64,000 nt of DNA, from assembly GCA_018062815.1 (NCBI GenBank), contig JAGORM010000001.1, positions 87,029 through 151,028 on the forward strand, in the 5' to 3' direction. The notes under the pieces are model-generated. The model worked only from the letters and a program-made list of their open reading frames with translations. It ran no database searches and was not told the DNA's origin. Source of the stretch: Candidatus Levyibacteriota bacterium. GTDB lineage: Bacteria > Patescibacteriota > Microgenomatia > Levybacterales > GWA1-39-11. Each line of letters starts with the position of its first letter. The stretch's first letter is position 1. The translations under genes were made by a program, and so were the position numbers. Of the stretch, positions 2,361-28,626 are shown piece after piece.

Positions 2361-2581
2361 TTTTTAATATATACCATATTATCAAAGGATACGAATTCAA
2401 ACAAGTAATTAATCAAGTGCAGTTGGGAAAAAAACATGCACTGGTATTGACAAATTGGCAGTCTATGTGATAGAGTGATAATAGATATAAGTTTAAGATA
2501 TCAGTGATAAATATTACTCATTGATAGTTTAAATTTTTAATAAAAAGAATAACACTTTTTGAAAGATTGGAGGTGAAAACT

Positions 2582-3016
2582 ATGGCAATAATTCGTTGGA
2601 ATCCTTGGAATATTGACAGATTTTTTGAAGACGATTTTGATTTACCTACCATCCCTGGAATTTCAAGATTAATGGGTCAAGGGTTAAATCTTTATGAAAC
2701 TGAGGAATCAATAATTTCAGAAGCAGCGCTTCCCGGCGTTTCAGAGGATAAGATTGATGTGACATTTGAGAACGGAGTAGTTCGTGTTACTGCGTCAATT
2801 GAAGATAAGAAAGAAGAAAAGGAAAAACGCAGGTATTTTATGAGTTCAATGACATCCTCATTTAATTATTCATTTAGAATCCCTGAAGGTGTTGTAGAGA
2901 CAAGCGAACCTGAGGCAGTCTTAGAAGATGGAGTGCTTAGATTAACGTTTAAAAAAGTTGTGAAGAAAGAACCTAAGAAAATAAAAGTATCTAAAAAGGT
3001 GAAAAGTATAAAGTAA
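2582..3016 (+). CDS. Small heat shock protein, Hsp20/alpha-crystallin family
   Basis: Alpha-crystallin domain pattern (WNPW..., ...VDVTFENGVVRVTA...LEDGVLRLTF). ATG at 2582 preceded by GGAGGTG at a 6-nt spacing; the track start at 2567 is a TTG. Confidence 0.85.
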   Translation: MAIIRWNPWNIDRFFEDDFDLPTIPGISRLMGQGLNLYETEESIISEAALPGVSEDKIDVTFENGVVRVTASIEDKKEEKEKRRYFMSSMTSSFNYSFRIPEGVVETSEPEAVLEDGVLRLTFKKVVKKEPKKIKVSKKVKSIK

Positions 3017-13768: not shown

Positions 13769-13813
13769 AAATTTAGAACCTACGCAAGATTGAAATGAGA
13801 GGAAAAAAGGACT

Positions 13814-13849
13814 TGACAGACCTTAGCAGTCATGTTATATTATTGCTAA
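13814..13849 (+). promoter_or_regulatory. hrcA promoter (TTGACA-16-TATATT) with overlapping CIRCE-like inverted repeat TTAGCAGTC-N9-TATTGCTAA
   Basis: -35 at 13814-13819. The IR TTAGCA...TGCTAA (13823-13849) matches the outer arms of the CIRCE consensus TTAGCACTC-N9-GAGTGCTAA and overlaps the -10. Confidence 0.6.
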
Positions 13850-13906: not shown

Positions 13907-14626
13907 ATGTATGATTTAACGCCACGGCAGGTTGATATCTTAAAGCTAATAGTAAAAGAGTATATTGATAATGCTGAAGCGGTAGGATCAGAAACTCTTG
14001 AAAAAAAACATGATGTAGGGATATCCCCTGCAACTATTAGAAATGAAATGGCAGCTATGGTGAAGTTGGGATACTTGTCAAAACCTCATACATCAGCAGG
14101 AAGAATTCCAACCACAAAAGCCTTAAAGCTTTATATAAATGAGCTGATGCGCGAAAAAGAACTATCTGTAGCTGATGAGGTTCAGGCAAAAGAGCATGTA
14201 TGGGACCTGCGCGCCCAAGAAGAAAAGTTTTTAAGGGGAGTAACCCGGGATCTTGCGCAAAAGACAAGAACGCTTGCGGTTACAACTACAGATGATGGAG
14301 ACATATATTATTCTGGGTACGCGAACATTCTTGAGATGCCTGAGTTCTATGATATTGATATAGCAAAAAATTTATTGTCAATTTTAGATAGCGCTGTGTG
14401 TTTCGACTTGATTACTAAAAGAATTGAAAATGAACTAGGAGTTTTTTTAGGAGATGAACTTGGAAGCGACATGTACAAGCCATATAGCTTTGTTTTTTCA
14501 AGGTTTCATACTAAAAATATAAACGGGTCAATTGGGGTAGTTGGTCCTGCAAGAATTAGGTATGAATTAGTAATACCCACAGTAAGATTTTTTGGCGGTC
14601 TAATTGGCGAAGTAGCTGAATGGTAA
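13907..14626 (+). CDS. hrcA: Heat-inducible transcription repressor HrcA (short form)
   Basis: N-terminal winged-helix (LTPRQVDILKLIVKEYIDNAEAVGSETL...SPATIRNEMAAMVKLGYLSKPHTSAGRIPT). Position upstream of grpE-dnaK. Confidence 0.85.
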   Translation: MYDLTPRQVDILKLIVKEYIDNAEAVGSETLEKKHDVGISPATIRNEMAAMVKLGYLSKPHTSAGRIPTTKALKLYINELMREKELSVADEVQAKEHVWDLRAQEEKFLRGVTRDLAQKTRTLAVTTTDDGDIYYSGYANILEMPEFYDIDIAKNLLSILDSAVCFDLITKRIENELGVFLGDELGSDMYKPYSFVFSRFHTKNINGSIGVVGPARIRYELVIPTVRFFGGLIGEVAEW

Positions 14627-15174
14627 TAAAAATGGATGATAAAACACAAAAACCAAAAGTAGAAGAAAATCTAGAGGAGATAGAAGAATTAGATGATGAA
14701 TTGGATGAAGAAGAAGAGGAGTTGGCATCAGATCACAGGGAATTAGACGAGTTGCGGGAGAAAAATAAAAGTCTTGAAGATCAATTGAAGCGAGCAGTTG
14801 CAGATTATAGAAATCTTGAAAATAGAGTTCGGGAAGAGCGCTTAGACTTTGTTAAGTACGCAAACAGATCGCTCATAGAGCAGTTGCTTCCGGCATTTGA
14901 CACGATGCTGCTTGCCGAAAAATATACAAAAGATGAGAATTTAAAAATTACTGCAAAACACATACTGGAAGTATTGAAGGTTGCAGGAATTGAAAAAGTT
15001 GAGACGGTTGGTAAAAAATATGACCCTATAAGTATGGAGGCGGTAGAAGTAGTAGAGGGGGAGAAGGAAAAGGTAATTGATGAGACACAGCCTGGGTTTA
15101 TGATATATGGAAAAATTATAAGACCGGCAAGGGTTAGAGTTGGAGGGAAAGAAGAGCCGAAAGAGCAAAAATAG
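14620..15174 (+). CDS. grpE: Nucleotide exchange factor GrpE
   Basis: Acidic N-terminus, long coiled coil, conserved RNLENRVREERLDFVKYANRSLIEQLLPAFD region. 7-nt overlap with hrcA. Confidence 0.9.
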   Translation: MVIKMDDKTQKPKVEENLEEIEELDDELDEEEEELASDHRELDELREKNKSLEDQLKRAVADYRNLENRVREERLDFVKYANRSLIEQLLPAFDTMLLAEKYTKDENLKITAKHILEVLKVAGIEKVETVGKKYDPISMEAVEVVEGEKEKVIDETQPGFMIYGKIIRPARVRVGGKEEPKEQK

Positions 15175-15241
15175 ATTACAATATTTTATGATTCTTGAAA
15201 TTTAATAGAGAATACATAATAATAAGGAGGAATAAAAAAAT

Positions 15242-17176
15242 ATGTCTAAAATAATAGGAATAGATTTAGGAACTACAAATTCATGCGTTGCAGTAATGGA
15301 AGGTGGCGCGCCAAAAGTAATATTTTCTGCAGAAGGAAGAAATGTGACACCATCTGTTGTAGATCCGGTAGACCGAGTAGTTGGTGATGTAGCAAAGAGG
15401 CAGATGGTTTTAAAACCGAAACGCATCATTTTTTCTATAAAACGTCTTATGGGTCGTCGCTTTAATGATCCGACAGTTCAACAGGACATAAAGCTCCTTC
15501 CTTATACTGTAAAAGCAGGAAAGGATGGTCTTGCGGTTGTGGAAGTTGATGGGAAGTCATATACACCTCAGGAGATTTCAGCAATGATTTTACAAAAGAT
15601 AAAGTCTGATGCTGAGTCGTATTTGGGAGATAAAATCACACAGGCAGTTATTACAGTTCCTGCGTATTTTGACGATGCGCAACGACAAGCAACAAAACAA
15701 GCGGGTGAGATTGCAGGGTTAGAAGTTCTACGTATTGTAAACGAGCCTACGGCTGCTGCGCTTGCCTACGGATTGGACAAAAAACACGCACATACAATTG
15801 CCGTATATGACATGGGCGGCGGTACGTTTGACGTATCCATATTAGAGTTAGGAGAAGGTGTTTACGAAGTAAAATCTACAAACGGAGATACACATTTGGG
15901 TGGAGATGACTTTGATCAAAAAATTATAGATTATATTGCGGATGAATTTAAGAAAGATAATAATATTGATCTAAGAAGTGACCCTCAGGCATTACAAAGA
16001 CTTAAAGAAGCAGCTGAGAAAGCAAAGATTGAATTGTCATCATCATCTGAAGCCGAAATTAATCAACCGTTCATAACTCAAGGGCCAAATGGACCACTTC
16101 ATCTAACAATGAAGTTAACTCGTGCGAAGCTTGAGAGTATAGTAGGAGATTTAATTACAAAGTCATTTAAGTCTGTTGAATCAGCACTTAAAGATGCAGG
16201 GCTAAAAGCATCTGATGTAAATGAGATTATTATGGTTGGGGGCATGACAAGAATGCCAAAGGTCGTAGAAGAGGTAACAAAATTCTTTGGAAAAGAACCT
16301 AATAAGAGTGTAAACCCGGATGAAGTAGTGGCGATTGGTGCAGCTGTTCAGGCAGGAGTATTGGGAGGAGACGTGAAAGATGTACTACTTTTAGATGTAA
16401 CTCCTTTAACTCTTGGAATTGAAACATTAGGCGGAGTTGCAACACCGCTTATTAATAGAAATTCAACAATTCCAACCAAAAAGTCTCAGGTATTTTCAAC
16501 TGCAGCCGACAATCAGACTCAGGTAGAGATTCATGTTGTTCAGGGCGAGCGTCCTATGGCTGTGGACAATAAATCTCTTGGAAGATTTGTTTTGGATGGA
16601 ATCCCGCCAGCACCTCGTGGTGTTCCTCAGGTTGAAGTTGCATTTGATATTGATGCTTCAGGAATTCTTTCGGTTTCAGCAAAAGATAACGCAACAGGGA
16701 AAACACAAAGCATTAAGATTACCGGAGGCACAGGTCTTTCAAAAGATGAAGTTGAAAGGATGACAAAAGAAGCGGAAATTCATGCTGAAGAAGATGAGAA
16801 GAAAAAGGAATTGATTGAAGTAAGAAATCGAGCAGATGGGCTTATCTTTACCGCAGAAAAATCATTAAAAGATCTGGGGGAAAAGGTTCCTGCCGACTTA
16901 AAATCGGCTGTAGAGGGAAAAATTTCTGCGCTGAAAGAAGCACTAAAAACTGAAGATAAAGCAGACATGGAAGCAAAGACGCAAGAACTGTCTGACCACT
17001 TGTCAAAAATAGGCGAGACTATGCAGAATCAGGCAGGACCGTCTGGTGAACAATCAGGTAACGGAGAGCCTGGGGCGGAACAGGAAGGTAAAGATGCATC
17101 ATCACAAACGGATCAAAGTGGATCAGAATCCTCTACAAATAAAGATGAAGCGGTAGAAGGAGAAGTAGTAAATTAA
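15242..17176 (+). CDS. dnaK: Molecular chaperone DnaK (Hsp70)
   Basis: [16 protein letters not shown], and full NBD+SBD architecture; 644 aa. Confidence 0.97.
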
Positions 17177-17234
17177 TCCCCATTTTCCTTTTGTAGATAA
17201 TTTTCCTGATTTTTAGAGTGTATTTGGGTAAGGC

Positions 17235-17924
17235 TTAATCTGAATGCGCTATTTTTTTTGGGATAACTATTTTCTTTATTGATTCAACCATTCCTTTGTG
17301 GGCAAGCTTATTAAATAAGCGACGGGCCTCTCTCTCTGATGCATGATAATCAAAGAAATTATTTGTTTTTTTTGTAACTCCAACCCCTAAATCACCTAAG
17401 ATAACTTTCGTATTTCCATTCGCGTCTAGGATAAAAAAATATGTGTCTTCGTATATATTAAAGCCAGCTCTATCTGCCTTTTGTGAGATTTCAATAAGTT
17501 GCGTTTTAACACTTTGTTTATTTTTTACAATCGCCTCAAAGTCTATTGTTTTATTGTGTATATCATTTGTTGAGAAAACACATTTTTTACCACCTTCAGT
17601 CAGGTCCGTTATTATTATTTTGTTAGATCCTTCGACTTGCCTAATGGTTAAAGGTACAGGTAGGTCAGCTTTTTTTAATTGCAGGTAGTGTTTTATGTAT
17701 TCGTCAGGAACATAAAATTCCCATGCCCGGGCATATTTTGTATCTCTTTCTGCAAATTCTCCTACCGTTCTTTCCCTTCCATTTTTTACAAGTATTAGTT
17801 CTCGGGTCACATATCTTGCTTCATTACCACTTCCGATATATCTACTGTTTTCCCCAAAAAATACTTCTGATTTACGACCTGTTAGGGGAGAAAATAATGT
17901 TTTTCTTTCCTTACCTTCTGGCAT
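17235..17924 (-). CDS. Hypothetical protein (no recognisable domain)
   Basis: 229-aa intact ORF convergent with dnaK and divergent from the pilin-like gene. No motif recognised. Confidence 0.5.
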   Translation of the reverse strand: MPEGKERKTLFSPLTGRKSEVFFGENSRYIGSGNEARYVTRELILVKNGRERTVGEFAERDTKYARAWEFYVPDEYIKHYLQLKKADLPVPLTIRQVEGSNKIIITDLTEGGKKCVFSTNDIHNKTIDFEAIVKNKQSVKTQLIEISQKADRAGFNIYEDTYFFILDANGNTKVILGDLGVGVTKKTNNFFDYHASEREARRLFNKLAHKGMVESIKKIVIPKKIAHSD

Positions 17925-17964: not shown

Positions 17965-18276
17965 ATGCTAGTATTAATATGTATGGAATGTGCAGCAAAT
18001 GAAATATTAACAGAGTTAGGTTGCCTACCAGATGATCCGATAGGTTTTGTCCAAAAGTTTTATGGATGGGGGCTGTCTCTTATAGGGGGTGTTGGGGTGC
18101 TATTTCTTATTTACGGAGGTTATCACATATTAACATCCGGTGGAAATCCAGAAAGATTACAAAAGGGTAAAGAATATATTTATTATGCAATTGCAGGGAT
18201 CGTCCTGGCAATTTTTGGATACGTATTTATAGAATTTATCGCAGGGTCAGTACTTAGAATTCCTGGATTTTCATAA
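17965..18276 (+). CDS. VirB2/TrbC-like (CPR-type T4SS-like) pilin candidate: two-helix hairpin protein
   Basis: 103 aa. Two hydrophobic helices (GWGLSLIGGVGVLFLIYGGYHIL and YYAIAGIVLAIFGYVFIEFIAG) separated by a TSGGNPERLQKGKE loop. Immediately followed (8 nt) by a polytopic VirB6-like membrane protein. No N-terminal signal peptide is seen; an in-frame upstream stop precludes extension. Confidence 0.4.
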   Translation: MLVLICMECAANEILTELGCLPDDPIGFVQKFYGWGLSLIGGVGVLFLIYGGYHILTSGGNPERLQKGKEYIYYAIAGIVLAIFGYVFIEFIAGSVLRIPGFS

Positions 18277-18284
18277 TTTTTACC

Positions 18285-20447
18285 ATGTTAAAACAACTGC
18301 CCATATTGTTTTTTTCAACGCTTCTTTTTTTGGTATTTTCCTTTCATGCTAGCTATGCTCAATCAACATCAGTTGTTAATCTCTCTGGTAATCCCTCAGG
18401 AGCTGTAAACGTTAGAATTGCGGATGACTCAGATCCGGTTCAAATTGATGACTCAATTACTCCAACGATCGGAGATTGGATACCTGATTCAACAGTAACT
18501 TTTGTGGGAAAAACTGCAAATAGAGCTGGAGATTTTCTTGATTGGACTATCAGAAATTATGATTGGACTTGTGTAAAAACTAATACCGGGTCATGTACGA
18601 GTTCAGGGAATCCGTTGGTAGGGTTTTGGGCATTGATTAGAAATATTGTTTACGCACTTCTTGTTATATTGGTTTTGGTTGCCGCGTTTGTAATGATAAT
18701 AACGCGTGGTAGAAACATAACAATTACCCGTTTTATCCCACGTTTTATATTTATTATTGTTTTAGTAACCTTATCATATGCTCTCGTACAATTTATTTAT
18801 CAAGTGACGGATATTATTCAGGGATTTTTTCTTAGAACTGATGGAAAGCTTATATCTACCAAAGACTTAATATTTATCGGATTTGATTATAAAAATTTTG
18901 AGGGAGCAAGACGATACGGTTCCCAGTATGATGAATCCGCTTTTATCACCCTTTTACTGGTACGGCTTACGGCGCTTACCTATTATGTTATGACTGGGGT
19001 GTTGTTGGTAAGAAAAATTATTTTATGGTTTTTTATTATCTTGTCTCCTGTTTTTCCGCTTTTGCTTTTTTTCAAGCCAATAAGAAATACGGGTAAGATA
19101 TGGGTGGGTGAGTTTTTCAGATGGTTATTATATGCGCCTCTGTTTGCAATTTTTTTACAAGGGTTAGTTGTATTATGGAAAAGTAAGGGAGGTATACCAT
19201 TAGCATTTGATTTTACAAACGTAGGGAATGTTATTTATCCGACAGCAGTAAACATTTTGATAGGTGGTCCTGGGCAAAAGATATTTTTTGATACTGAAAC
19301 AAGCTCCAACAGCGTTAATTTACAGGACACATTCGCGCTATATGTTGTAGCACTGTTAATGTTATGGGTTGTGATTATACTACCATTCTTGCTTCTTAAA
19401 ATTTTCTTAGATTACTTAGGTGGGTTATCCCTTCAAGATAATGTTACAATGAAAAGACTTCTGAATCGCGGATCTGAATTCTTACCTCTTAACCGTCCTC
19501 CTGCCCCTTCCCCATCTGCTCCACTCCCTCCGTCGCAGGGTGCAGGTAGGGCAATGCAAATACCATTTAATGCTGCTGCCTCCCGAAGCATATCTGAAAA
19601 TAGAACAATCAGTTCAGCACAGTCTAATCGTTCAATAACATCAATTCCTGTTAACGCACAGATATTGCAACTCGCAAACTTATCAGTGCCAAAAATGCGA
19701 GATATTGCCCGCTTTGAAACATCTATGGTAACCCATAATTCATCAAAGATGCAGGACGTTTCCAGACTTAAAACATCACTTACAAGAATTTCAAATCCGT
19801 CTACTATTACTGCCCCATTAGAGAGAGAAAGATATACACAAGTAAAACAACAATTAATGTCAGAAAAACAAAAAGGCAACGTTCTAGCTTCCTCAATTTT
19901 GACTGCAGCAAATACGACTGCCGCACCGTACCAAAAGGGAATGGTGTCATCTCAACAAGTGCATTTGCCACAGGCAAATAAAGTTCAACAAGTAAGTATA
20001 GAGGACTATGAAGAAGTAAGAAAAATGTGGCAAGATACGTATCAAAACTCAACTCCTCCAACTGATCTTTCGGGAAAGAAAGATTCAAGAGAGGAGTGGA
20101 TTAAAGGAGATATAGATAAAATTAATCAAGCTATAACACTTTTAAATTCAGTTGATCCTGTAAGAACCCAAGAGGGAATGGATATGGTTTCAAATATACT
20201 TCCGTTCTTAATGATTGGTGGATTCTCCAAGACTGAAGTTATAGCTTATCTCAAGGCTAAATTAGAGGCAGCCAAAGATGTTCTTTCAGCAAGTTCAAAG
20301 AAAAACGAAGAAGATGATACCATGATGGATCGTGAAGAAAAAACTGCAACCACACAGAAGCATATGAGTACCCATGCTGAGGCAGAAATCCCAACAGTAG
20401 ATGATGGTGCAAAAAAACTTGAAGATTTAAGAAAACAAGGATTATAG
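18285..20447 (+). CDS. VirB6/TrbL-like polytopic membrane protein with long hydrophilic C-terminal extension
   Basis: Signal peptide, roughly 90-aa exported domain, then about 6 TM helices. C-terminal half of about 350 aa begins with a Pro-rich segment (NRPPAPSPSAPLPPSQ) and is otherwise polar and S/T-, K/E- and Q-rich. Confidence 0.35.
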   Translation: MLKQLPILFFSTLLFLVFSFHASYAQSTSVVNLSGNPSGAVNVRIADDSDPVQIDDSITPTIGDWIPDSTVTFVGKTANRAGDFLDWTIRNYDWTCVKTNTGSCTSSGNPLVGFWALIRNIVYALLVILVLVAAFVMIITRGRNITITRFIPRFIFIIVLVTLSYALVQFIYQVTDIIQGFFLRTDGKLISTKDLIFIGFDYKNFEGARRYGSQYDESAFITLLLVRLTALTYYVMTGVLLVRKIILWFFIILSPVFPLLLFFKPIRNTGKIWVGEFFRWLLYAPLFAIFLQGLVVLWKSKGGIPLAFDFTNVGNVIYPTAVNILIGGPGQKIFFDTETSSNSVNLQDTFALYVVALLMLWVVIILPFLLLKIFLDYLGGLSLQDNVTMKRLLNRGSEFLPLNRPPAPSPSAPLPPSQGAGRAMQIPFNAAASRSISENRTISSAQSNRSITSIPVNAQILQLANLSVPKMRDIARFETSMVTHNSSKMQDVSRLKTSLTRISNPSTITAPLERERYTQVKQQLMSEKQKGNVLASSILTAANTTAAPYQKGMVSSQQVHLPQANKVQQVSIEDYEEVRKMWQDTYQNSTPPTDLSGKKDSREEWIKGDIDKINQAITLLNSVDPVRTQEGMDMVSNILPFLMIGGFSKTEVIAYLKAKLEAAKDVLSASSKKNEEDDTMMDREEKTATTQKHMSTHAEAEIPTVDDGAKKLEDLRKQGL

Positions 20448-20497
20448 AGTAGACTTGCAAAAAAAGAATAAAATCCACATAATATAATACACTGCCT

Positions 20498-23161
20498 ATG
20501 TTCGGAAATTTATTTAACACAGCAAAACAAGATGACCAGATAGTGACACACAATACAAGGGTTGATATTGATAACCCTATGCTAGGGGGAGCAAATATTT
20601 CCATTAACTCATCAGGTAATCCAAGTCAGATACAACCCTCCCCATCAATTTCCCAGAACCCTGTAGGGATGGACCCACAAAAAAGAGAAAACATGTTTGC
20701 TTTATCCCGCCTTGATCCACGATCACTTCAAGTTCTTCATCATGCTCAGGAGGAAACCAAGCGATTGTCTCAGGAGTTTATTAATCCGGAGCAACTACTT
20801 TTAGGACTTTTTTATGATGGGGATGTTTTTCGCATATTAGAACAATTTAATGTAGATGTTGCAAAATTAACCCATGAGATTCAAGCAAAAGAAAGGCCTG
20901 GTACTTTTTCGGGACAGCCCACTATGGGGCCAAGCGTTGTTAAGATATTTGATGAGGCATATTCAAACGCAAAAAAAAGAGGTGCTTCATTTGTCTCCCC
21001 TGAGGATATAATGGTTGCGCTTTTTTCTGAAACATCAACCTCTGAATTCTTAAAAACATTTGGTGTGCAGAGAGATAAATTAGAGGAAAAATTGTCTAAA
21101 TCTACAGGCTATGTTTCATCTTCAAGAAAAAGCGTGTTAGAAAAATACGGTATTGACCTGACTCAGGAAGCAAAGGACGGCAAGTTAGATCCTATTGCCG
21201 GCCGCGAGCGGGAAACAGAGCGTTTGATTCACATACTATTAAGAAGAACCAAGAATAATCCGATAATTATTGGCGAGGCGGGAGTGGGAAAGACAGCAAT
21301 CGTTGAGTCGCTTGCTCTTAAAATCGCAGAAGGGTCGGTTCCTCACGACCTTTTAAATAAGCGAATTATTCAACTGGAGCTTGCTTCACTGGTTGCAGGA
21401 GCTTCACATAGGGGTGAGTTTGAGGAAAGATTGCAGGACGTGATTAAGGAAACACAAGCATCAAATGGCCAAGTAATATTATTCATAGATGAAATTCATA
21501 CTCTTATCGGGACAGGGGACACGCAAGGAGCTATGGATGCTTCAAATATAATAAAACCATATTTAGCAAGAGGGCAGTTGCAACTTATCGGAACCACAAC
21601 TACTGCTGAGTACCGTAAATATTTTGAAAAAGATAAGGCCTTTGAAAGACGTTTCCAAGCTGTATTAGTTGACGAGCCGACTGAAGAAGTTGCCGAGCAG
21701 ATGCTTGAAGTATTAAAACCCAAATATGAAAAATTTCATTCAGTTGAGATTACTCCAGAGGCGATTAAGGCGGCTGTTCATCTTTCAAAAAAGTATATAG
21801 GAGAAAGATACTTACCCGATAAGGCTGTTGACTTATTAGATGAAGCGGCAGCAGAGGTAAAATTGCAGCATACAGAAGGAAAAAGACAGGACAATAAGGT
21901 CATAAAATCAGACATAGAAAAAGTCGTGTCCGCATGGACTGGAATTCCTATAACTCGTCTCACTGAGGATGAATCTCAAAAGTTAATTCACCTGGAGGAT
22001 ATCATTCACAAACGATTAATTGATCAAGAAGAGGCAGTAGCTGCAGTATCTGAGGCGGTAAGACGTGGGAGGATTGGTCTTGCAAGTGCAAACAGGCCAA
22101 TAGCATCATTTATCTTTTTGGGTCCAACTGGAGTTGGAAAAACAGAGTTGGCAAAAACTCTCGCGGAGATTTTATTTGGAAGGGATGATCTTATGATTAG
22201 GCTTGATATGTCAGAATATATGGAAAAGCATGAGGTTGCAAAACTTATTGGAGCTCCTCCAGGATACGTTGGGTACGAAGAAGGTGGACAGCTAACAGAA
22301 GCGGTACGTGCAAAACCGTATTCAATAGTGCTCTTAGATGAAATAGAAAAAGCTCATCCAGATGTATTTAATATTTTACTTCAGCTACTTGAAGATGGAA
22401 GACTTACTGACAACAAAGGGAATACGATATCTTTTAAGAATACTATTATTATCGCAACGTCAAATATAGGATCTTCACTTATTCAACAAACTCTTTTAAC
22501 TCAAAGCTCAAACGCAACGCAGGTGGTTTCTCCTGCTGAAGAAGCAAAAAGATTTTCATCTCTATCAAAAACCCTGATGGATGAGTTAAGAAAATTTTTT
22601 AAACCAGAGTTGTTAAATCGATTTGATGAAATAGTAATGTTTAAACCATTGCGTCAGCAAGATATGATGCAGATTGCAAAAATAGGCATATCTAAGACAC
22701 AAAAATTATTAGCGGAGCAAGAGATAAACCTAACTATAACGGAGAAAGCATTAGGTGTATTATCAAAAGAAGGATACGATCCTGTATACGGAGCGCGTCC
22801 GTTAAGAAGACTTATACAGTCAGCAATTGAAAATCCAATTGCGATACTACTTATTAATAAAACTTTTACCGTGCACGATACTGTTCAAATTGATTATGAT
22901 GATGCAAAGGCTCAGTTCACATTTACAAAGTTGACACAGCCAGTGGACAAACAGGAACAGCAGCCCATACCCGCGTCCTCAGCACAAGTTGCAACCCAAC
23001 AATCTAATATGGCAGCAGCTGGTTCGGTTGAAGCAGCAAATGGGAATGGAATTTTATCTGATATCGCAAAGGAACATTCGGCTGCTATCCCTCCTCCCGT
23101 ACAATCTGCGCCCCCAATGTCATCTGTTGACTCAAGTGGTACTATAATGCAACCTGCCTAA
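20498..23161 (+). CDS. ClpB-like Hsp100 AAA+ ATPase lacking the M-domain, with N-terminal extension and Q/A/P-rich C-terminal tail
   Basis: Two Clp_N repeats. D1 Walker A GEAGVGKTA and Walker B ILFIDEIH. D2 GPTGVGKTELAKTLAE, Walker B VLLDEIEKAH. ClpB-like D2 segment TSNIGSSLIQQ with no ClpP-binding IG[FL] loop. Only about 28 aa separate ...DLLDEAAAEVKLQ and VVSAWTGIP, where ClpB carries a roughly 120-aa coiled-coil M-domain. Confidence 0.8.
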   Translation: MFGNLFNTAKQDDQIVTHNTRVDIDNPMLGGANISINSSGNPSQIQPSPSISQNPVGMDPQKRENMFALSRLDPRSLQVLHHAQEETKRLSQEFINPEQLLLGLFYDGDVFRILEQFNVDVAKLTHEIQAKERPGTFSGQPTMGPSVVKIFDEAYSNAKKRGASFVSPEDIMVALFSETSTSEFLKTFGVQRDKLEEKLSKSTGYVSSSRKSVLEKYGIDLTQEAKDGKLDPIAGRERETERLIHILLRRTKNNPIIIGEAGVGKTAIVESLALKIAEGSVPHDLLNKRIIQLELASLVAGASHRGEFEERLQDVIKETQASNGQVILFIDEIHTLIGTGDTQGAMDASNIIKPYLARGQLQLIGTTTTAEYRKYFEKDKAFERRFQAVLVDEPTEEVAEQMLEVLKPKYEKFHSVEITPEAIKAAVHLSKKYIGERYLPDKAVDLLDEAAAEVKLQHTEGKRQDNKVIKSDIEKVVSAWTGIPITRLTEDESQKLIHLEDIIHKRLIDQEEAVAAVSEAVRRGRIGLASANRPIASFIFLGPTGVGKTELAKTLAEILFGRDDLMIRLDMSEYMEKHEVAKLIGAPPGYVGYEEGGQLTEAVRAKPYSIVLLDEIEKAHPDVFNILLQLLEDGRLTDNKGNTISFKNTIIIATSNIGSSLIQQTLLTQSSNATQVVSPAEEAKRFSSLSKTLMDELRKFFKPELLNRFDEIVMFKPLRQQDMMQIAKIGISKTQKLLAEQEINLTITEKALGVLSKEGYDPVYGARPLRRLIQSAIENPIAILLINKTFTVHDTVQIDYDDAKAQFTFTKLTQPVDKQEQQPIPASSAQVATQQSNMAAAGSVEAANGNGILSDIAKEHSAAIPPPVQSAPPMSSVDSSGTIMQPA

Positions 23162-23185: not shown

Positions 23186-24940
23186 ATGCAAAGAATATTT
23201 CATGTGTTACGGCGTATTGATACCCGTTTTTTTCTCTTACCCTTTTTATTATTTGCATTTGGAGCAATCGGATATTTAGGTATCCAGGGGGTTTTTTTTC
23301 AAAAAGATAAAATATTTCCACAGGGTGTACGGTATATTCCGGATCAAATAATAGTCAAATATAAAATTGGACAATCTCCAGATGAGCTTCAGAATGCAGG
23401 GAAAACAGAAGATAGAAAGGTACTGTTGTCTGCACTATCAAATGTTGGAGTTTCTTCTCAAAAGAGGTTGTACGTGTCAGAAAATTCTTTGCTTGAAAAT
23501 TATTATGTATTAACTCTCAAGTCTGGTTTTACAGTCCCAGATGCATATAGCAATATTAAAAAGATACCTGAAATAGAAAGTGCTGCCCCTGATTATATAT
23601 TAAAAATACAGGAAGCCCCAAATGATCCATATTACCCATCTATGTGGAATCTTTCTAAAATTGAGGCAGAAATGGTGTGGAATAGAGTGCATGTAGATGG
23701 GAAGGTTATAGTTGCAGTTATAGATACAGGAGTTGACTATCAACACGAGGACTTACAAGACGTGGTAATAAAAGGTAAAAATTTTATTTCTAATGATAAT
23801 AATCCGATGGATGATCAGGGGCATGGGACTCATGTTGCAGGAATAGCTGCTGCAGTTACAGATAATGGTATAGGAATAAGTGGGGTCTCCTGGGGGGCTA
23901 AAATTTTGGCTATTAAGGCGTGTGATAAAAATGGAGACTGTAGTACGGCAAATGTTTCAAGAGCTATTCAGTATGCCGTAGACAACAATGCAAAAATTAT
24001 TAATGTCAGCATTGCAGGGAGCGGTTCATGTAACGGAACGTATACTGATGTATTAAGATATGCATTAAGAAAAGGTGCAATGGTTGTTGTTGCTGCTGGA
24101 AACGGAAATAATGGAGACGGAATAGGTGTGGATGTAGAATCTCAAATACCTGCATCATGTGAAGGCTCTATCGCAGTGGGTTCAATTACAGCAGAAGGTA
24201 AAAGATCAAATTTTTCTAATTTTGGTTCTAAGGTTGAGATTTCCGCTCCCGGCGGCGCTGGACCTTGTACAATTGAGAGTTGTATTATTTCTACTAGCAT
24301 TAACAACTCATACTCACTTCGTTCTGGGACTTCTATGGCCGCCCCTCAGGTAAGTGCTGTTGCTGCGCTCCTTTTGTCCAATGATAGAAATCTTTCTATG
24401 TCAAAAATTCGTTCCTGTATTCTAAATGGTGGGAACAGTCTTCAAACAGATAAAAATATCGGGCTTCTTTTGAATGCTCAAAATTCATTGAGTATATGTA
24501 CTAAAACTGAACCTACCCCCACCCCAAAAAATATTAATAATATGTCATCTATTGCAGGTACAGTGTTTATTGACACTAATAAAAATAACAAATTTGATTC
24601 AACAGAAAAAACATTATCATCTGTCCAGATCATTTTATCTGGCTTAACTAATGATAGTGTAATAAGTAATTCAAAAGGAAAATATTTATTTTTGAGATTA
24701 CCAAGTGGTCAACACACAATATCTGCGACATTAAACGGGAAAAGCGTAATTACACCTATTAATATTTCTGTTGTATCAAACAATGCTGCTCAGCTTAATA
24801 TACCTGTACCCTCCGAAAAGGTAATTATTAAGCCAACACCTTCTGTTAGTGAACAAAAAACCTCTTCTCAATGCTTTGTCGATCCAGACTGCTTGAAAAG
24901 CAAGAAGTCAGTTCAAATATGTTCTTTTCAATGCGAATGA
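23186..24940 (+). CDS. Membrane-anchored subtilisin-like serine protease (peptidase S8) with C-terminal Cna-B/SdrD-B-like domain and Cys-rich tail
   Basis: N-terminal TM helix. Catalytic triad motifs VAVIDTGVD, GHGTHVAG and GTSMAAP. TPTP linker, then GTVFIDTNKNNKFD...KGKYLF...GQHTISAT resembling B-type repeats. C-terminal CFVDPDC...CSFQC. Confidence 0.85.
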   Translation: MQRIFHVLRRIDTRFFLLPFLLFAFGAIGYLGIQGVFFQKDKIFPQGVRYIPDQIIVKYKIGQSPDELQNAGKTEDRKVLLSALSNVGVSSQKRLYVSENSLLENYYVLTLKSGFTVPDAYSNIKKIPEIESAAPDYILKIQEAPNDPYYPSMWNLSKIEAEMVWNRVHVDGKVIVAVIDTGVDYQHEDLQDVVIKGKNFISNDNNPMDDQGHGTHVAGIAAAVTDNGIGISGVSWGAKILAIKACDKNGDCSTANVSRAIQYAVDNNAKIINVSIAGSGSCNGTYTDVLRYALRKGAMVVVAAGNGNNGDGIGVDVESQIPASCEGSIAVGSITAEGKRSNFSNFGSKVEISAPGGAGPCTIESCIISTSINNSYSLRSGTSMAAPQVSAVAALLLSNDRNLSMSKIRSCILNGGNSLQTDKNIGLLLNAQNSLSICTKTEPTPTPKNINNMSSIAGTVFIDTNKNNKFDSTEKTLSSVQIILSGLTNDSVISNSKGKYLFLRLPSGQHTISATLNGKSVITPINISVVSNNAAQLNIPVPSEKVIIKPTPSVSEQKTSSQCFVDPDCLKSKKSVQICSFQCE

Positions 24941-24983: not shown

Positions 24984-25838
24984 ATGAAGAAAGACTATTA
25001 CGAAATATTAGGAGTCTCAAAAAACGCTACTCCTGAAGAATTAAAAAGGGCATATAGAAAATTGGCCTTACAGTATCACCCAGATAAAAATAAAACCCAG
25101 GAAGGGGAAGAAAAGTTTAAGGAAATAAATCATGCATATGAAGTGCTTTCGGATTCTACTAAGCGTGCAACATATGACCAGGTAGGTCCATCCGGATTTG
25201 ATGGAAGTGCGGGATCACCTTTTGGTGGGCAGAGAGGAGGTCAGTACGGACCGTTCACATACTCATATGGTAACAGTGGGGAGGGGGCAAATTATGATTT
25301 TGGCGGTTTCTCCGACCCTTTTGAGATATTTGAGCAATTTTTTGGGGGTGGGTACGCAAAGCGTAAACCAAGATATAGTATAACAATAGATTTTTTAGAG
25401 GCTGTTCATGGTACTTCAAAAAAAGTGTCCATAGACGGAAAAACTCAAACAATTAAAATACCTGCAGGGGTAGATAATGGATCAAGAATTCAATTCCCAA
25501 ATTATGAAGTGATTGTAGGAGTAAGAGGGAGTAGTAAATTCCAGAGGGAAGGGAATGATATTGTAGCTGAAAGTGTAATTTCATTGCCTATCGCCATTCT
25601 TGGTGGCACTATTGAAATAGAAACAGTACATGGTCAAGTAACGCTTAAAATCCCTGCGGGAACTCAGCCTGATACCTTAATGAGAGTAAAGGGAAAAGGC
25701 GTTCCTCGCGTGAGAGGTGGGGGAAGCGGGGATCATTTTGTTCGAATTAAAATTCAAATCCCCACAAGAATAAATTCACGACAAAAGGAACTGCTTAATG
25801 AGTTTGACGCAGAAAGCCGCAAGAAGAAATGGTTTTAA
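24984..25838 (+). CDS. DnaJ-class J-domain chaperone (type II/CbpA-like, no zinc-finger domain)
   Basis: J domain with HPD ([32 protein letters not shown]), G/F-rich region, and C-terminal substrate-binding beta domains. No CxxCxGxG repeats. Confidence 0.85.
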
Positions 25839-25911: not shown

Positions 25912-26250
25912 ATGGGTATTCTGTCCTATCCCTTTCTAGTGGTTTTGTTTTGGTATAAAGAAGGTTTATTACGATTATTGCTTTACTTCCGTTCATTTGA
26001 TGACTACTGTATACGACTATTTTCTCTGCATGGATTATTTTCAAGCTACTTTAAGCCTTTAAAAAACGAATACAGAAAGAATCTTGTTTTATTCTCGGTA
26101 TTTTTTGGGATGGTAGTTAAAACGTTTCTAATTATTGTCTCACTTTCTATATTGTTTATAGTTTTACTATTTGAAGGATTATTAATTTTTATCTATGTTC
26201 TTTTTCCAGTCTTGCCTTTATTTATTATATTCCTATCTAAATACTTATAA
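25912..26250 (+). CDS. Hypothetical small polytopic membrane protein
   Basis: 112 aa, 3 predicted TM helices, 6 nt upstream of the membrane-anchored Clp-like ATPase. Confidence 0.45.
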   Translation: MGILSYPFLVVLFWYKEGLLRLLLYFRSFDDYCIRLFSLHGLFSSYFKPLKNEYRKNLVLFSVFFGMVVKTFLIIVSLSILFIVLLFEGLLIFIYVLFPVLPLFIIFLSKYL

Positions 26251-26256
26251 ATCCAA

Positions 26257-28626
26257 ATGAAAAATTTTGACATGTTTAATTTATACGTTTTTTATAATAA
26301 TGTGTTCGTAAAGGCATTTCGGTTTTTTGCACTTTTGTTTTTGACAATAGTCTTGTTTTATGTAAGAAATGACCTATTTCTTTTTAGAATAATTCTTAGT
26401 TTCTATGTGTTATATCTTGTAAATGAAATTTTTGTCCATTTTAAAATTAATAAATCAAGTCCGCTTAATACAGTAAGCATTGATAGCAATCTGCCTCAGT
26501 TGGCTATATTGTTTAACGTAAGATATTTGCTTAGCATAAAAAATAATAATTTCTTTATTGAAAAATTGATAAAACAGAAAGACGTTGCATTTTTTATTGC
26601 AAAAATTGATGGGTTTGATTCTTCCTCAGCTCAAGTTAATGTTATAGGTTTGTTAAATAGAGCACGTTCTTTAGCGCAAATCTGCAAAGGAACTTACATT
26701 ACGGCAGCTGATATATTTGCAGCCTATCTTCTTTTGACAGAAAGCGAAAGCCACCTTTTGGAGCAGAAAGAACTAACGGAAAACGATATATTAGAAATAC
26801 TTTTATGGTGTAGAGAAAAGTACAATCTAGATAAAGTAAATTTTATTAATATGCATTTTACAGGAGCAGGCGTTTTTGACTTTTTTATATATGGTTGGAA
26901 CACTCAATTAAAAGAATTCTCGTTTGATTTAACATACAGTTTAATCGGAAAAAATACATCTCCTATTGTAGGAAGGGAAAAAGAATTTTCTCAGATGGTG
27001 GGAATACTTTCAAAAAATTCTACAAACAACTTATTAATAATAGGCGAACCTGGAGTTGGAAAATCTTCACTGGTTTCGTTTTTGGCTCTGGAGGCATACA
27101 GAAATACAAGGTTTATTTTGCACAACACAGTTGTATATGAACTTCTTGTTGATAGATTGCTTGCGGGGGTGTCTGATGCAGGAGAACTGGAGACGCGTCT
27201 AGGGTTATTGCTTTCTGAAATAGAACATATTGGAAATGCTGTACTTTTTATTCAAAACATGGAAAATATTTTTGGGGCAGGCGGATTTGGTTTTGATATG
27301 TCAGGCATATTATTTTCTTATTTAAAAAATGGAAAGGTGCAAATAATAGGTACAACAACTCCATCTTTTTATAAATCAGTTATTGAAAAGAAGTCTAGTA
27401 TTATGAGCTTATTCGAGTTGTTAAGATTATATGAGCCTGATCGTGATGTTTCATTGCGGATGATTGCAGCCCATGTTGATAATATTGAACGGGAGTACAA
27501 TGTAAGCATATCATATAAGGCAATTCATGAGACATTAGAATTGGCTTTCTCATTTCTCCCAGAAACATTCCTTCCGGGTAAAGCAATACTTCTTCTTCAT
27601 GATGTTTCATCCAGGGTAAGACTTGCGGGAAGAAATCGGGTCGAGAAAGAGGACGTAATACAGTTTGTTCAAGAGAAGACAAACATTTTACTTGAGAGAC
27701 CAGATATAGATGAGAAAAAAGTTTTATTATCCCTTGAGCAAGAATTACATAAGAGAATAATAGGACAAGATGAGGCAGTAATTGCAATTTCAAAGGCAAT
27801 AAGAAGGCTAAGAAGTGGTTTTTCTCAGAATAAACGTCCTATTTCCACCTTTCTTTTTCTAGGTCCTACTGGAGTAGGGAAAACAGAAACTGCAAAGGCT
27901 TTATCACAAATTTACTTTGGGGATGAGGCAAATATGATAAGGCTTGATATGAGTGAATACCAAACGCAAAATGAGGTAGATAGATTATTAGGCGGTGTTC
28001 CCGGGGGAATTGAAATAGAAAATTCACTGCCTGAACAGGTTAGACTTCATCCCTTTTCGCTCATATTGTTAGATGAATTTGAGAAGGCACATCCACACAT
28101 ATTAGATATATTTCTGCAAATTTTTGAGGATGCTCGGCTTACTGATAATAGCGGAAGAACGGTTTCATTTAAAAATACCATAATTATTGCAACAAGCAAC
28201 GCTGGGTCAGAATCAATTCGTGAGATGATGCATGAGAAGAAAGATCCTGCTTCATTAAAGAATATTTTAGTAGAGGCTCTACTTAGAGATGGAGTGTTTA
28301 AGCCTGAACTACTAAATAGATTTGATGATGTGATTATTTTTACACCACTCTCTTCTATTGAGGCAGCTGAAATTGCGAAACTTATCCTTGCATTATCATT
28401 AAAGTCTCTTGAGGACGATCAAATTTACATTACATTTGACGATAAGGTTAAAAATAAAATAGTGCAAGAGTCGTTTGATGAAGAGGCGGGCGCTCGGAAT
28501 ATGAGAAGGTATGTGGGATCGACAATTGAAGATTATTTATCAAGGCTTATACTGGAAGATAAATTGAAAAAGGGAGCACATGCTACTTTGACAGTCGACG
28601 AGAACAACAATTTTGTATTACAATAA
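26257..28626 (+). CDS. Membrane-anchored Hsp100/Clp-like AAA+ ATPase paralog: N-terminal TM helices, degenerate D1 (Walker B DE replaced by QN), intact D2, no M-domain
   Basis: 2 N-terminal TM helices (FRFFALLFLTIVLFYV, LFRIILSFYVLYLV) and a degenerate Clp_N-like segment. D1 Walker A GEPGVGKSS but Walker B AVLFIQNMENIF (27253-27258 = CAA AAC). D2 GPTGVGKTETAKALSQ and ILLDEFEKAH, and TSNAGSE. No ClpP IGF loop. Confidence 0.75.
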   Translation: MKNFDMFNLYVFYNNVFVKAFRFFALLFLTIVLFYVRNDLFLFRIILSFYVLYLVNEIFVHFKINKSSPLNTVSIDSNLPQLAILFNVRYLLSIKNNNFFIEKLIKQKDVAFFIAKIDGFDSSSAQVNVIGLLNRARSLAQICKGTYITAADIFAAYLLLTESESHLLEQKELTENDILEILLWCREKYNLDKVNFINMHFTGAGVFDFFIYGWNTQLKEFSFDLTYSLIGKNTSPIVGREKEFSQMVGILSKNSTNNLLIIGEPGVGKSSLVSFLALEAYRNTRFILHNTVVYELLVDRLLAGVSDAGELETRLGLLLSEIEHIGNAVLFIQNMENIFGAGGFGFDMSGILFSYLKNGKVQIIGTTTPSFYKSVIEKKSSIMSLFELLRLYEPDRDVSLRMIAAHVDNIEREYNVSISYKAIHETLELAFSFLPETFLPGKAILLLHDVSSRVRLAGRNRVEKEDVIQFVQEKTNILLERPDIDEKKVLLSLEQELHKRIIGQDEAVIAISKAIRRLRSGFSQNKRPISTFLFLGPTGVGKTETAKALSQIYFGDEANMIRLDMSEYQTQNEVDRLLGGVPGGIEIENSLPEQVRLHPFSLILLDEFEKAHPHILDIFLQIFEDARLTDNSGRTVSFKNTIIIATSNAGSESIREMMHEKKDPASLKNILVEALLRDGVFKPELLNRFDDVIIFTPLSSIEAAEIAKLILALSLKSLEDDQIYITFDDKVKNKIVQESFDEEAGARNMRRYVGSTIEDYLSRLILEDKLKKGAHATLTVDENNNFVLQ

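Follow-up and report, generated by a model that had tools for sequence, protein, structure and literature searches.

Clp1, an Hsp100 ATPase of Patescibacteria lacking both the M-domain and the ClpP tripeptide

The clp gene, its missing M-domain and its D2 loop

The DNA analyzed here, a stretch of 64,000 nucleotides (nt) from a contig of a Candidatus Levyibacteriota bacterium (JAGORM010000001.1; hereafter the window), is unremarkable chromosomal DNA from a Patescibacterium of low GC content. At 20498..23161 on its forward strand (+), which also carries all other features of this gene given below, lies clp, an open reading frame (ORF) of 887 codons plus stop that starts with ATG and is uninterrupted. 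By its translation and its Pfam, NCBIfam and PDB matches, the product, which we call Clp1, is an Hsp100/Clp ATPase without an M-domain; P0001, an NCBI protein from a Candidatus Levybacteria metagenome-assembled genome (MAG), is 100% identical to it. Five Pfam families matched Clp1, namely Clp_N in two stretches, AAA (D1) at residues 256-369, AAA_lid_9 at 396-476, AAA_2 (D2) at 533-712 and ClpB_D2-small at 718-798, and since all five exceeded their cutoffs, Clp1 has the domains of a class-1 Hsp100/Clp protein.

The two Clp_N repeats, already recognized in the original prediction made for this stretch, cover residues ~66-210 (20693..21127; Pfam E = 3.9e-15) and were modeled by AlphaFold2 as a helical repeat fold with a predicted local distance difference test score (pLDDT) of ~90, compared to a mean pLDDT of 71.6 for the full-length model. 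They are followed by the D1 AAA+ module with its lid (21140..21853) and the D2 AAA+ module with its D2-small domain (21923..22933), both delimited by Pfam matches and motif positions. D1 contains Walker A (GEAGVGKT, 21272-21295), Walker B (ILFIDEIH, 21476-21499) and arginine-finger (ERRFQ, 21644-21658) motifs, and D2 contains Walker A (GPTGVGKT, 22121-22144), Walker B (IVLLDEIEKA, 22325-22354) and sensor-2 (GARPLRR, 22790-22810) motifs; the Walker A and B, arginine-finger and sensor-2 motifs are invariant among 102 family members (alignment A1). The two rings differ in their pore loops. The D2 pore loop, GAPPGYVGYEEGG (22250-22288), carries Tyr590 and reads GAPPGYVG in 121 of 121 sequences, whereas the alignment places His304 of the D1 pore loop, AGASHRGEFE (21395..21424), at the pore-tyrosine site of ClpA, ClpB and ClpC, where E. 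coli ClpA, E. coli ClpB and Bacillus ClpC show the canonical KYR. The D1 loop reads AGASHRGEFE in 107 of 121 sequences, with H304 invariant in alignment A1; family-wide, an aromatic pore residue is thus present in D2 and missing from D1 (SHR).

The lid motif PDKAVDLLDEAAA (residues 440-452) is separated from VVSAWTGIP (residues 476-484) by only 23 residues, EVKLQHTEGKRQDNKVIKSDIEK, and this D1-D2 linker (21854..21922) lies at the M-domain insertion site according to motif spacing, AlphaFold2 and tblastn. A short linker at this site had been predicted, with a length of 28 residues at about 21866-21938; its presence was borne out, while its length and position are corrected by the values measured here. 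Compared to the 23 residues of Clp1, the same region spans ~78 residues in ClpC and ~139 in ClpB. Between PDKA..DE and W-T-G-I-P lie 30 residues in Clp1, compared to 28 and 146 in the E. coli proteins ClpA and ClpB, respectively, and the D2 Walker A follows the lid motif at a distance of 92 residues in Clp1, 90 in ClpA, 147 in ClpC (Bacillus, Heyndrickxia and Veillonella) and 208 in ClpB. The NCBIfam ClpB model fits Clp1 in two stretches and skips the M-domain, whereas the ClpA model fits in a single stretch, 78-782. In the AlphaFold2 model, the linker region forms a helix (441-460), a loop (461-469) and a second helix (470-481), without a coiled coil. When the M-domains of E. coli ClpB and Bacillus ClpC were searched by tblastn against all frames of the window and of the related loci, nothing was found even at E = 10, which leaves no M-domain encoded in another frame.

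The same architecture was found across the family. In the homologue set, consisting of the 120 best matches (61-100% identity, every named one from Patescibacteria), a spacing of 26 residues between DE and VVSxWTGIP is present in 119 of 120 members, the remaining one having 32. A 592 kb NCBI MAG contig and two independent Logan assemblies each carry a 92%-identical gene with its neighbours in the same order. No sign of an assembly error, a frameshift or a decaying pseudogene was found; in one relative, L096, the gene is apparently split between D1 and D2. Against such an artefact, whose probability we consider negligible, stand the unbroken frame with 69 nt between the flanking motifs, the identical architecture in those 119 homologues and in independent NCBI, JGI, ENA and Logan assemblies, the invariance of all catalytic motifs and the negative tblastn result in every frame. 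Altogether, the results confirm the predicted absence of the M-domain, which is a fixed trait of a large lineage and not an error.

Several observations concern the site itself. In L096 (972-3831), the seemingly split gene gives a 587-residue ORF with a GTQM-type tail end, and D2 restarts ~560 nt further on; in the homologue P0122, a 176-residue Q/N-rich insertion lies precisely at the former M-domain site. The former site thus accommodates large low-complexity insertions within the Clp1 lineage. Elsewhere in the Hsp100 tree, architectures without an M-domain arose repeatedly, some of them with LGF loops, so the lack of an M-domain is by itself not unique.

The D2 surface loop at the position of the ClpP-docking loop of ClpA and ClpC spans residues 654-708 (22457..22621), from TSNIGS to LLNR, and is variable in sequence. 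As predicted, it begins with TSNIGSSLIQQ (residues 654-664) and lacks the ClpP-docking tripeptide: [LIVM]G[FL] was found neither in the Clp1 loop nor in any of the 117 retrievable D2 loops of homologues. As controls, Bacillus ClpC and E. coli ClpA were put through the same test, which detected their VGF and IGL, respectively; the reference ClpCs contain VGF or LGF. The loop measures 55 residues in Clp1, compared to 48 and 40 in Bacillus ClpC and E. coli ClpB, respectively, with a range of 48-77 residues among the homologues. Its size is therefore ClpC-like or longer, not ClpB-like, a small correction to the earlier description of D2 as ClpB-like, of which the missing tripeptide stands. No clpP, clpX, clpS, ctsR, mcsA, mcsB or canonical clpB gene was found in the window, in the 10 kb past each of its ends or in 318 kb of related loci.

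Descent of Clp1 and comparison with known Hsp100 families

To examine the lineage of Clp1, 1.84 billion cluster representatives were searched exhaustively with HMMER; only ~9 of them scored above 740 bits, and a continuum of ClpC- and ClpB-like proteins followed below. The nearest representatives outside the family, P0125-P0128 and P0272 (the named ones from Candidatus Gottesmanbacteria), as well as a Saccharibacteria homologue (L059), carry a coiled-coil insertion of ClpC length, ~55 residues; they have already lost the tripeptide, and their D1 pore reads xHR or SKR, not KYR. A sister set of proteins with an M-domain, hereafter M-plus, was assembled from the 120 best matches to P0272 together with this query (121 sequences), those named coming from Gottesmanbacteria, Roizmanbacteria, Microgenomates and Parcubacteria. 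The spacing that measures 26 residues in the M-less family is 81 residues in 117 of these 121, and the pore histidine (xHR) is present in 116; no ClpP tripeptide was found in the members with a retrieved D2 loop. They also carry a peptide, MPxG[LF]FNFS[KR]Y[LI]KK, that is related to the N-terminal peptide of Clp1 described below. The M-plus sisters (P0393-P0510, P0125-P0128 and P0272; L171 and L172) are 1200-1800 residues long, with very long low-complexity tails.

In a neighbor-joining (NJ) tree built from 573 core columns with 200 bootstrap replicates and rooted with E. coli ClpA as the outgroup, the M-less clade received 100% support and its grouping with the M-plus Microgenomates sequences 96%; the Patescibacterial clade was not placed inside the Firmicute ClpC clade with support. 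Among PDB sequences, Clp1 matched S. aureus ClpC best (694 bits, ~44% identity), ahead of E. coli ClpB (674 bits) and ClpA (498 bits), and among PDB folds ClpC was again the best match and ClpB the second. Because the M-plus sisters keep a coiled coil of ClpC length, group with the M-less family at 96% and because the best PDB matches are ClpC proteins, these comparisons suggest that Clp1 probably derives from a ClpC-type ancestor, within a lineage specific to Patescibacteria. The original prediction had described it as a ClpB with a cleanly deleted M-domain; a private deletion from ClpB does not agree with this descent or with a spacing common to 119 of 120 homologues. Since the M-plus sisters share both the loss of the tripeptide and the D1 change from tyrosine to histidine, these two changes would predate the loss of the M-domain. 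The likely order is then that the ClpP loop was lost, the D1 pore tyrosine became histidine and the tails were gained in a first stage, with the M-domain being lost in a second.

A scan of genome contigs with the whole of Clp1, dominated by the generic pattern DMSEYMEK, returned only ClpC loci from other phyla, at 39-46% identity; those from Bacillus (L018), Heyndrickxia (L060), Veillonella (L036) and Saccharibacteria (L059) served here as references and not for comparing family synteny. A metagenome scan with a six-sequence alignment gave 6 family loci among 80.

Compared to the known Hsp100 families, Clp1 reached its top NCBIfam score with ClpB (TIGR03346), 897.8 bits, which lies under the equivalog cutoff of 1232.1. 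Clp1 resembles ClpB/Hsp104 in the lack of a ClpP loop, in its heat-shock context and in the succession of Clp_N, D1 and D2, but it lacks the whole ~120-residue M-domain, with motifs 1 and 2 and the DnaK docking site, its D2 loop is 15 residues longer than that of E. coli ClpB, and its D1 pore has SHR instead of KYR. ClpC of Firmicutes and Actinobacteria (for example S. aureus and B. subtilis ClpC and M. tuberculosis ClpC1) is the best match in sequence and fold and shares Clp_N, D1 and D2; the N-domains start alike (FALSRLDPRSLQVL vs MFGRFTERAQKVL), and the M-domain of the sister family has exactly the ClpC length. Unlike ClpC, Clp1 lacks the ~55-residue M-domain, and hence the MecA site and the resting-state contacts, lacks the VGF/LGF ClpP loop, has histidine in place of the D1 pore tyrosine, carries long disordered tails with conserved terminal peptides and does not lie in a ctsR-mcsA-mcsB context. 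The engineered ClpC variants with a deleted or mutated M-domain (PMC5699869) equal Clp1 in architecture once the coiled coil is removed; they are laboratory constructs that retain ClpP docking, whereas Clp1 has lost the ClpP loop too.

ClpA has the same domain order as Clp1 and nearly the same linker (30 residues in Clp1 vs 28), and its model aligns end to end. Its scores are under their cutoffs (TIGR02639, 728.7 bits vs 993.15; PRK11034, 554.7 vs 1350), its similarity is lower (498 bits), Clp1 lacks the IGL tripeptide, and neither the window nor the related loci gave a ClpS match. An ordinary ClpA with an overlooked ClpP loop is ruled out by the score below cutoff, the lack of IGL and the lack of a nearby ClpS. 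ClpG/ClpK and ClpL, at 41-43% identity, are ClpP-independent and DnaK-free Hsp100s with extra terminal regions for targeting or control, but ClpG and ClpL have N-terminal domains of their own (N1 and a non-Clp_N domain, respectively) and keep a shortened M-domain. The ClpG and ClpK models (NF033607/NF033606; cutoff 1900) scored 672.7 and 704.6 bits, and the Clp1 extension is disordered, without the extra folded N1 domain. In plasmid ClpL, which lacks a ClpP loop and has an M-domain of ClpC length, just the AAA core aligns with Clp1 (residues 204-781, 43% identity), Clp1 having Clp_N and no M-domain. Finally, ClpV/TssH (TIGR03345; 696.7 bits vs a cutoff of 884.95) is an Hsp100 without ClpP coupling that is encoded beside its envelope machine; the analogy with Clp1 is positional only, and the window holds no type VI secretion genes.

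Taken singly, the parts of Clp1 are familiar from other Hsp100s, and an M-less Hsp100 is not new either, ClpA being one; what is distinctive is their combination, that is, probable ClpC descent, no M-domain, no ClpP loop, a D1 histidine, terminal peptides and adjacency to VirB2- and VirB6-like genes. Searches that paired Patescibacteria, candidate phyla radiation (CPR), Microgenomates or Levybacteria with Clp/Hsp100 terms or with M-domain loss returned no description of the Clp1 family.

Terminal peptides and gene neighbourhood

Clp1 begins with a conserved peptide, MFGNLFNTAK (20498..20527), identified in the homologue alignment with the family consensus M[FLI]GNLF-N-Q-K-[KR]. In 114 of 120 homologues, M[FLI]GNLF starts at residue 1; its G3, N4, L5 and F6 are nearly invariant (alignment A1). 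The peptide is followed by a low-complexity, disordered spacer (residues 11-65, 20528..20692; pLDDT < 50 for residues 1-59). Among homologues, the N-terminal extension varies in length from 2 to 210 residues, and the spacer varies in sequence also. The N-terminal extension of residues 1-65 noted originally is therefore present, and with its conserved terminal peptide it is more than mere extra sequence. Compared to the 92%-identical relative L003, the spacer differs by a 3-nt indel that keeps the frame, which supports translation of the extension. The NCBI record P0001 starts at M66 (822 residues); because the MFGNLF-type peptide occurs at the upstream ATG in those 114 homologues, that start is probably wrong and the 887-residue form correct. 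From its sequence, we suspect that the peptide is an amphipathic element that binds a membrane or a partner.

At the other end, residues 813-887 (22934..23158) form a disordered tail rich in A, S, Q and P (pLDDT < 50 for 816-887), in which AlphaFold2 modeled a short helix at 853-862 as the exception. A tail of this kind had been predicted at ~85 residues; it measures 75. Two of its motifs recur among homologues: GILSDIAKEH (23048-23077), in a subset that includes Clp1, and the end motif ..GTxMQPA (23135-23158), with a terminal G[TSAV]xM[QASMK] in 64 of 120. Another subset has EP[VI][YF]GxDNNG in the tail, and a YG[FY] tail motif is missing from Clp1 itself.

The heat-shock neighbourhood proposed for clp, with hrcA, grpE, dnaK and a dnaJ-like gene, was confirmed by Pfam. 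The hrcA-grpE-dnaK operon lies at 13907..17176 (+), preceded by a repeat resembling CIRCE (controlling inverted repeat of chaperone expression) at 13823-13849 with 3 mismatches (0.04 expected by chance), which overlaps a sigma-70-like promoter match at 13813-13841 (11 of 12 consensus positions). A second CIRCE-like repeat (2455-2481; 3 mismatches, 0.04 expected by chance) precedes an Hsp20 gene at 2567-3016, and the two repeats together suggest an HrcA regulon. About 8 kb upstream of the window start lie groES-groEL and lepA (L173), giving a region of ~84 kb with GroES/EL, Hsp20, HrcA-GrpE-DnaK, DnaJ and two Clp paralogues, and with no ClpB, ClpP or ClpX. A terminator-like hairpin (17217-17250) follows dnaK and overlaps the 3' end of the next gene, a 229-residue ORF on the reverse strand (17235-17924, -) that has no family match and is conserved solely in the closest relative.

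Beyond this ORF runs a co-directional string of genes with gaps of -14 to 73 nt, consisting of a pilin gene, a VirB6-like gene, clp, an S8 subtilase gene, the dnaJ-like gene, a gene for a small membrane protein, a gene for a second Hsp100 (Clp2) and a 2-hydroxyacid dehydrogenase gene. The pilin gene (17965..18276, +) encodes a VirB2-like protein with two predicted transmembrane (TM) helices (Pfam T4SS_pilin, 34.3 bits vs a cutoff of 26.6) and was found upstream in each of the 9 related loci with coverage there. Adjoining clp on its 5' side, the VirB6-like gene (18285..20447, +) encodes a polytopic membrane protein with ~7 hydrophobic segments, a conserved soluble C-terminal domain of ~340 residues and weak TrbL/VirB6 similarity: TrbL is sub-threshold in the window copy (24.4 vs 25.9 bits), is the only recurring family match, seen in 5 of 10 orthologues (best E = 6.2e-6), and a profile of the protein gave no match to PDB sequences. 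The VirB6-like gene directly precedes clp in the window, as it does in 11 of 11 related loci (L003, L086-L089 and L091-L096; 61-92% Clp identity), the pilin, VirB6-like and clp genes being co-directional with gaps of 8-50 nt. No VirB4, VirD4 or VirB3 gene was found near the pilin and VirB6-like pair. Farther upstream, hrcA-grpE-dnaK is present in all related loci with enough flank, while two M-plus sister genes lie in unrelated contexts without dnaK, pilin or VirB6-like neighbours. Just 5' of the clp start codon there is a candidate sigma-70-like promoter, TTGCAA-17-CATAAT (20455..20483, +), which matches the consensus at 9 of 12 positions; the intergenic DNA upstream of clp is near-identical in the relative L003.

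Directly 3' of clp, at 23186..24940 (+), lies a gene for an S8 subtilase with a signal peptide (Pfam Peptidase_S8, E = 3e-55; hydrophobic segment at residues 11-29) that also bears an SdrD_B/CarboxypepD_reg-like domain. An S8 peptidase occupies this place in most related loci, and L088 has a faint M64-like peptidase instead. The DnaJ-like co-chaperone gene (24984..25838, +) encodes a J domain and DnaJ_C by Pfam, with no match to the zinc-finger domain; relatives have the gene at this place or else on the stretch from dnaK to the pilin gene. A 112-residue hydrophobic protein without a family match (25912-26250, +), weakly conserved in L003, L087, L089 and L095, is encoded just 5' of Clp2. Clp2 itself (26257..28626, +) is a second, divergent Hsp100 paralogue of 789 residues with two N-terminal TM helices and neither Clp_N nor an M-domain. 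Its D1 Walker B is degenerate (LFIQNMEN), as conserved in a family of ~70 members restricted to Levybacteria/Patescibacteria; its D2 Walker A and B are intact, and its D2 pore loop, GGVPGGIEIE, has no aromatic residue. From these motifs, Clp2 may be a membrane-anchored ATPase that does not thread. It lies downstream of Clp1 in L003, L087, L089 and L095, and partly in L088. At 56913-58079 (+), between the PNPase and RNase J genes, a single-ring AAA ATPase of 388 residues (Pfam AAA) is encoded.

Proposed function and alternatives

In ClpB, the M-domain docks Hsp70 and also represses the enzyme, and DnaK-dependent disaggregation does not proceed without it; threading is driven mainly by AAA2, and mutants in pore loop 1 keep substantial activity (PMC8129007, review). 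In ClpC, the M-domain holds the resting state and binds MecA; ClpC lacking the M-domain and M-domain mutants form hexamers that are constitutively or fully active without adaptor, and the in vivo toxicity of the M-domain point mutant F436A depends on ClpP (PMC5699869, Carroni et al. 2017). With a probability of roughly 0.6, we propose from the sequence comparisons above that Clp1 is a Levybacteria-type, Patescibacteria-specific, ClpC-derived class-1 Hsp100 that works as a hexameric two-ring threading machine independently of ClpP and of an M-domain. D2 would be the main translocation motor and D1 would mostly support assembly or grip; substrates would be unfolded or disaggregated and then released, not degraded. 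DnaK could not recruit or activate the machine as it does ClpB, and neither a ClpC-type resting state held by an M-domain nor activation by MecA would be available. The claim that Clp1 has no canonical DnaK coupling through an M-domain holds accordingly, as it follows from the established role of that domain (PMC8129007). As no M-domain is present, control and targeting would have to come from Clp_N, from the tail peptides and from heat-shock-linked transcription. The loss of ClpP coupling would have come first and probably made the loss of the repressing M-domain tolerable. The heat-shock context fits such a chaperone, with the CIRCE-like site and promoter before hrcA and Hsp20, GroES/EL, DnaK, GrpE and DnaJ encoded nearby.

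Several points weigh against this proposal. A general chaperone role does not explain why the pilin and VirB6-like genes so strictly adjoin clp. The search for ClpB, ClpP, ClpX and adaptors covered only the window, ~20 kb of flanks and 318 kb of loci and is a weak test of the whole genome; moreover, clpP is annotated in at least one Saccharibacterium, in which clpB is annotated too, so ClpP is not missing phylum-wide. ClpP may also be docked in a non-canonical manner, for example by C-terminal tail motifs at the D2 face. Lastly, AlphaFold2 runs on the full protein and on residues 1-215 gave no confident placement of the terminal peptides, with a pLDDT of ~44 for the N-terminal peptide on Clp_N.

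Clp1 could alternatively be read as a ClpP-coupled protease ATPase of ClpA-like architecture with a non-canonical docking element, which we judge very unlikely. Clp1 has the domain order of ClpA, N-D1-D2 with no M-domain, the ClpA model aligns in a single stretch, and databases label Clp1 as 'ATP-dependent Clp protease ATP-binding subunit / ClpC'; apart from the annotated Saccharibacterial clpP, the tail E-P-[VI]-[YF]-G-x-D-N-N-G of some members contains a hydrophobic-Gly-hydrophobic triplet. These points are outweighed by the 0 of 117 D2 loops with [LIVM]G[FL] and the variability of the loop in both length and sequence, by the lack of the YG[FY] tail motif in Clp1 and its ClpA score of 728.7 against 993, and by the lack of clpP, clpS and clpX in the window, flanks and related loci examined. 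Coupling to DnaK would instead make Clp1 the Hsp100 half of a DnaK-dependent bi-chaperone whose contact lies outside an M-domain, possibly with the hydrophobic-basic N-terminal peptide (MFGNLFNQKK) as a client-like handle for the substrate-binding domain of DnaK. It would agree with the position of clp, which in the window and in every locus with enough flank lies downstream of hrcA-grpE-dnaK in a string that includes a dnaJ-like gene, and with an invariant N-terminal peptide on a disordered tether that may resemble a DnaK motif. We nevertheless hold it to be unlikely: motif 2 of the M-domain, the sole established Hsp70 docking site on Hsp100s, is missing, the N-terminal peptide is also found in M-plus sisters that do not adjoin dnaK, and the terminator-like hairpin and the opposite-strand ORF separate dnaK from the string that runs from the pilin gene to clp.

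The neighbours on the 5' side raise a different prospect, that Clp1 is the dedicated motor or unfoldase of a VirB2-like/VirB6-like envelope module in the fashion of ClpV, with the N-terminal peptide as a membrane tether and the C-terminal tail handing over to a partner. The VirB6-like gene immediately upstream in 12 of 12 M-less loci, the pilin gene before it wherever the region is covered and their common direction favor this, as do the two M-plus sisters without a pilin or VirB6-like context, the richness of the cluster in membrane or secreted proteins (the TM-anchored Clp2 among them) and the conserved soluble C-terminal domain of the VirB6-like protein. A 2025 preprint surveying Patescibacterial type IV secretion systems (T4SS), which does not mention Clp or DnaK and finds VirB6 homologues scarce in Microgenomates, also counts on this side by its silence on any Clp. 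On the other side, the TrbL match is a weak one that stays under threshold in the window copy, VirB4, VirD4 and VirB3 are not found nearby, the synteny is explicable by shared descent in one lineage, and the membrane role of the peptide is only suspected from its sequence. We consider such a dedicated role improbable. A fuller version would unite Clp1, the VirB2-like pilin and the VirB6-like protein, possibly along with Clp2 and the secreted subtilase, in a single envelope machine of the sampled Levybacteria and related Microgenomates; the unfoldase, held at the membrane through its N-terminal peptide, would drive or supply a minimal conduit resembling type IV secretion. This version seems to us just as doubtful.

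The M-domain is regarded as a key regulatory and partner-binding element of ClpB, ClpC, ClpE and ClpL, and its removal abolishes disaggregation by ClpB and deregulates ClpC. The Clp1 family is a large natural Hsp100 lineage that does without it, next to M-plus sisters that share the loss of the ClpP loop and the D1 change from tyrosine to histidine. This natural series of M-less and M-plus proteins bears on how an Hsp100 is controlled without an M-domain, on whether repression by the M-domain can be spared once ClpP coupling is gone and on how D1 works without its pore tyrosine. For the Clp1 family, labels such as 'ATP-dependent Clp protease ATP-binding subunit/ClpC' probably mislead, and so does the shortened start at M66. 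The strictly conserved adjacency to VirB2- and VirB6-like genes points to a possible and testable connection of an unfoldase with an envelope apparatus; if the envelope-machine reading were true, an Hsp100 would have been co-opted for a T4SS-type module in the manner of ClpV, a case hitherto undescribed. The family also bears on proteostasis in the ultra-small, host-dependent Patescibacteria, in which Clp1 may be the main Hsp100.

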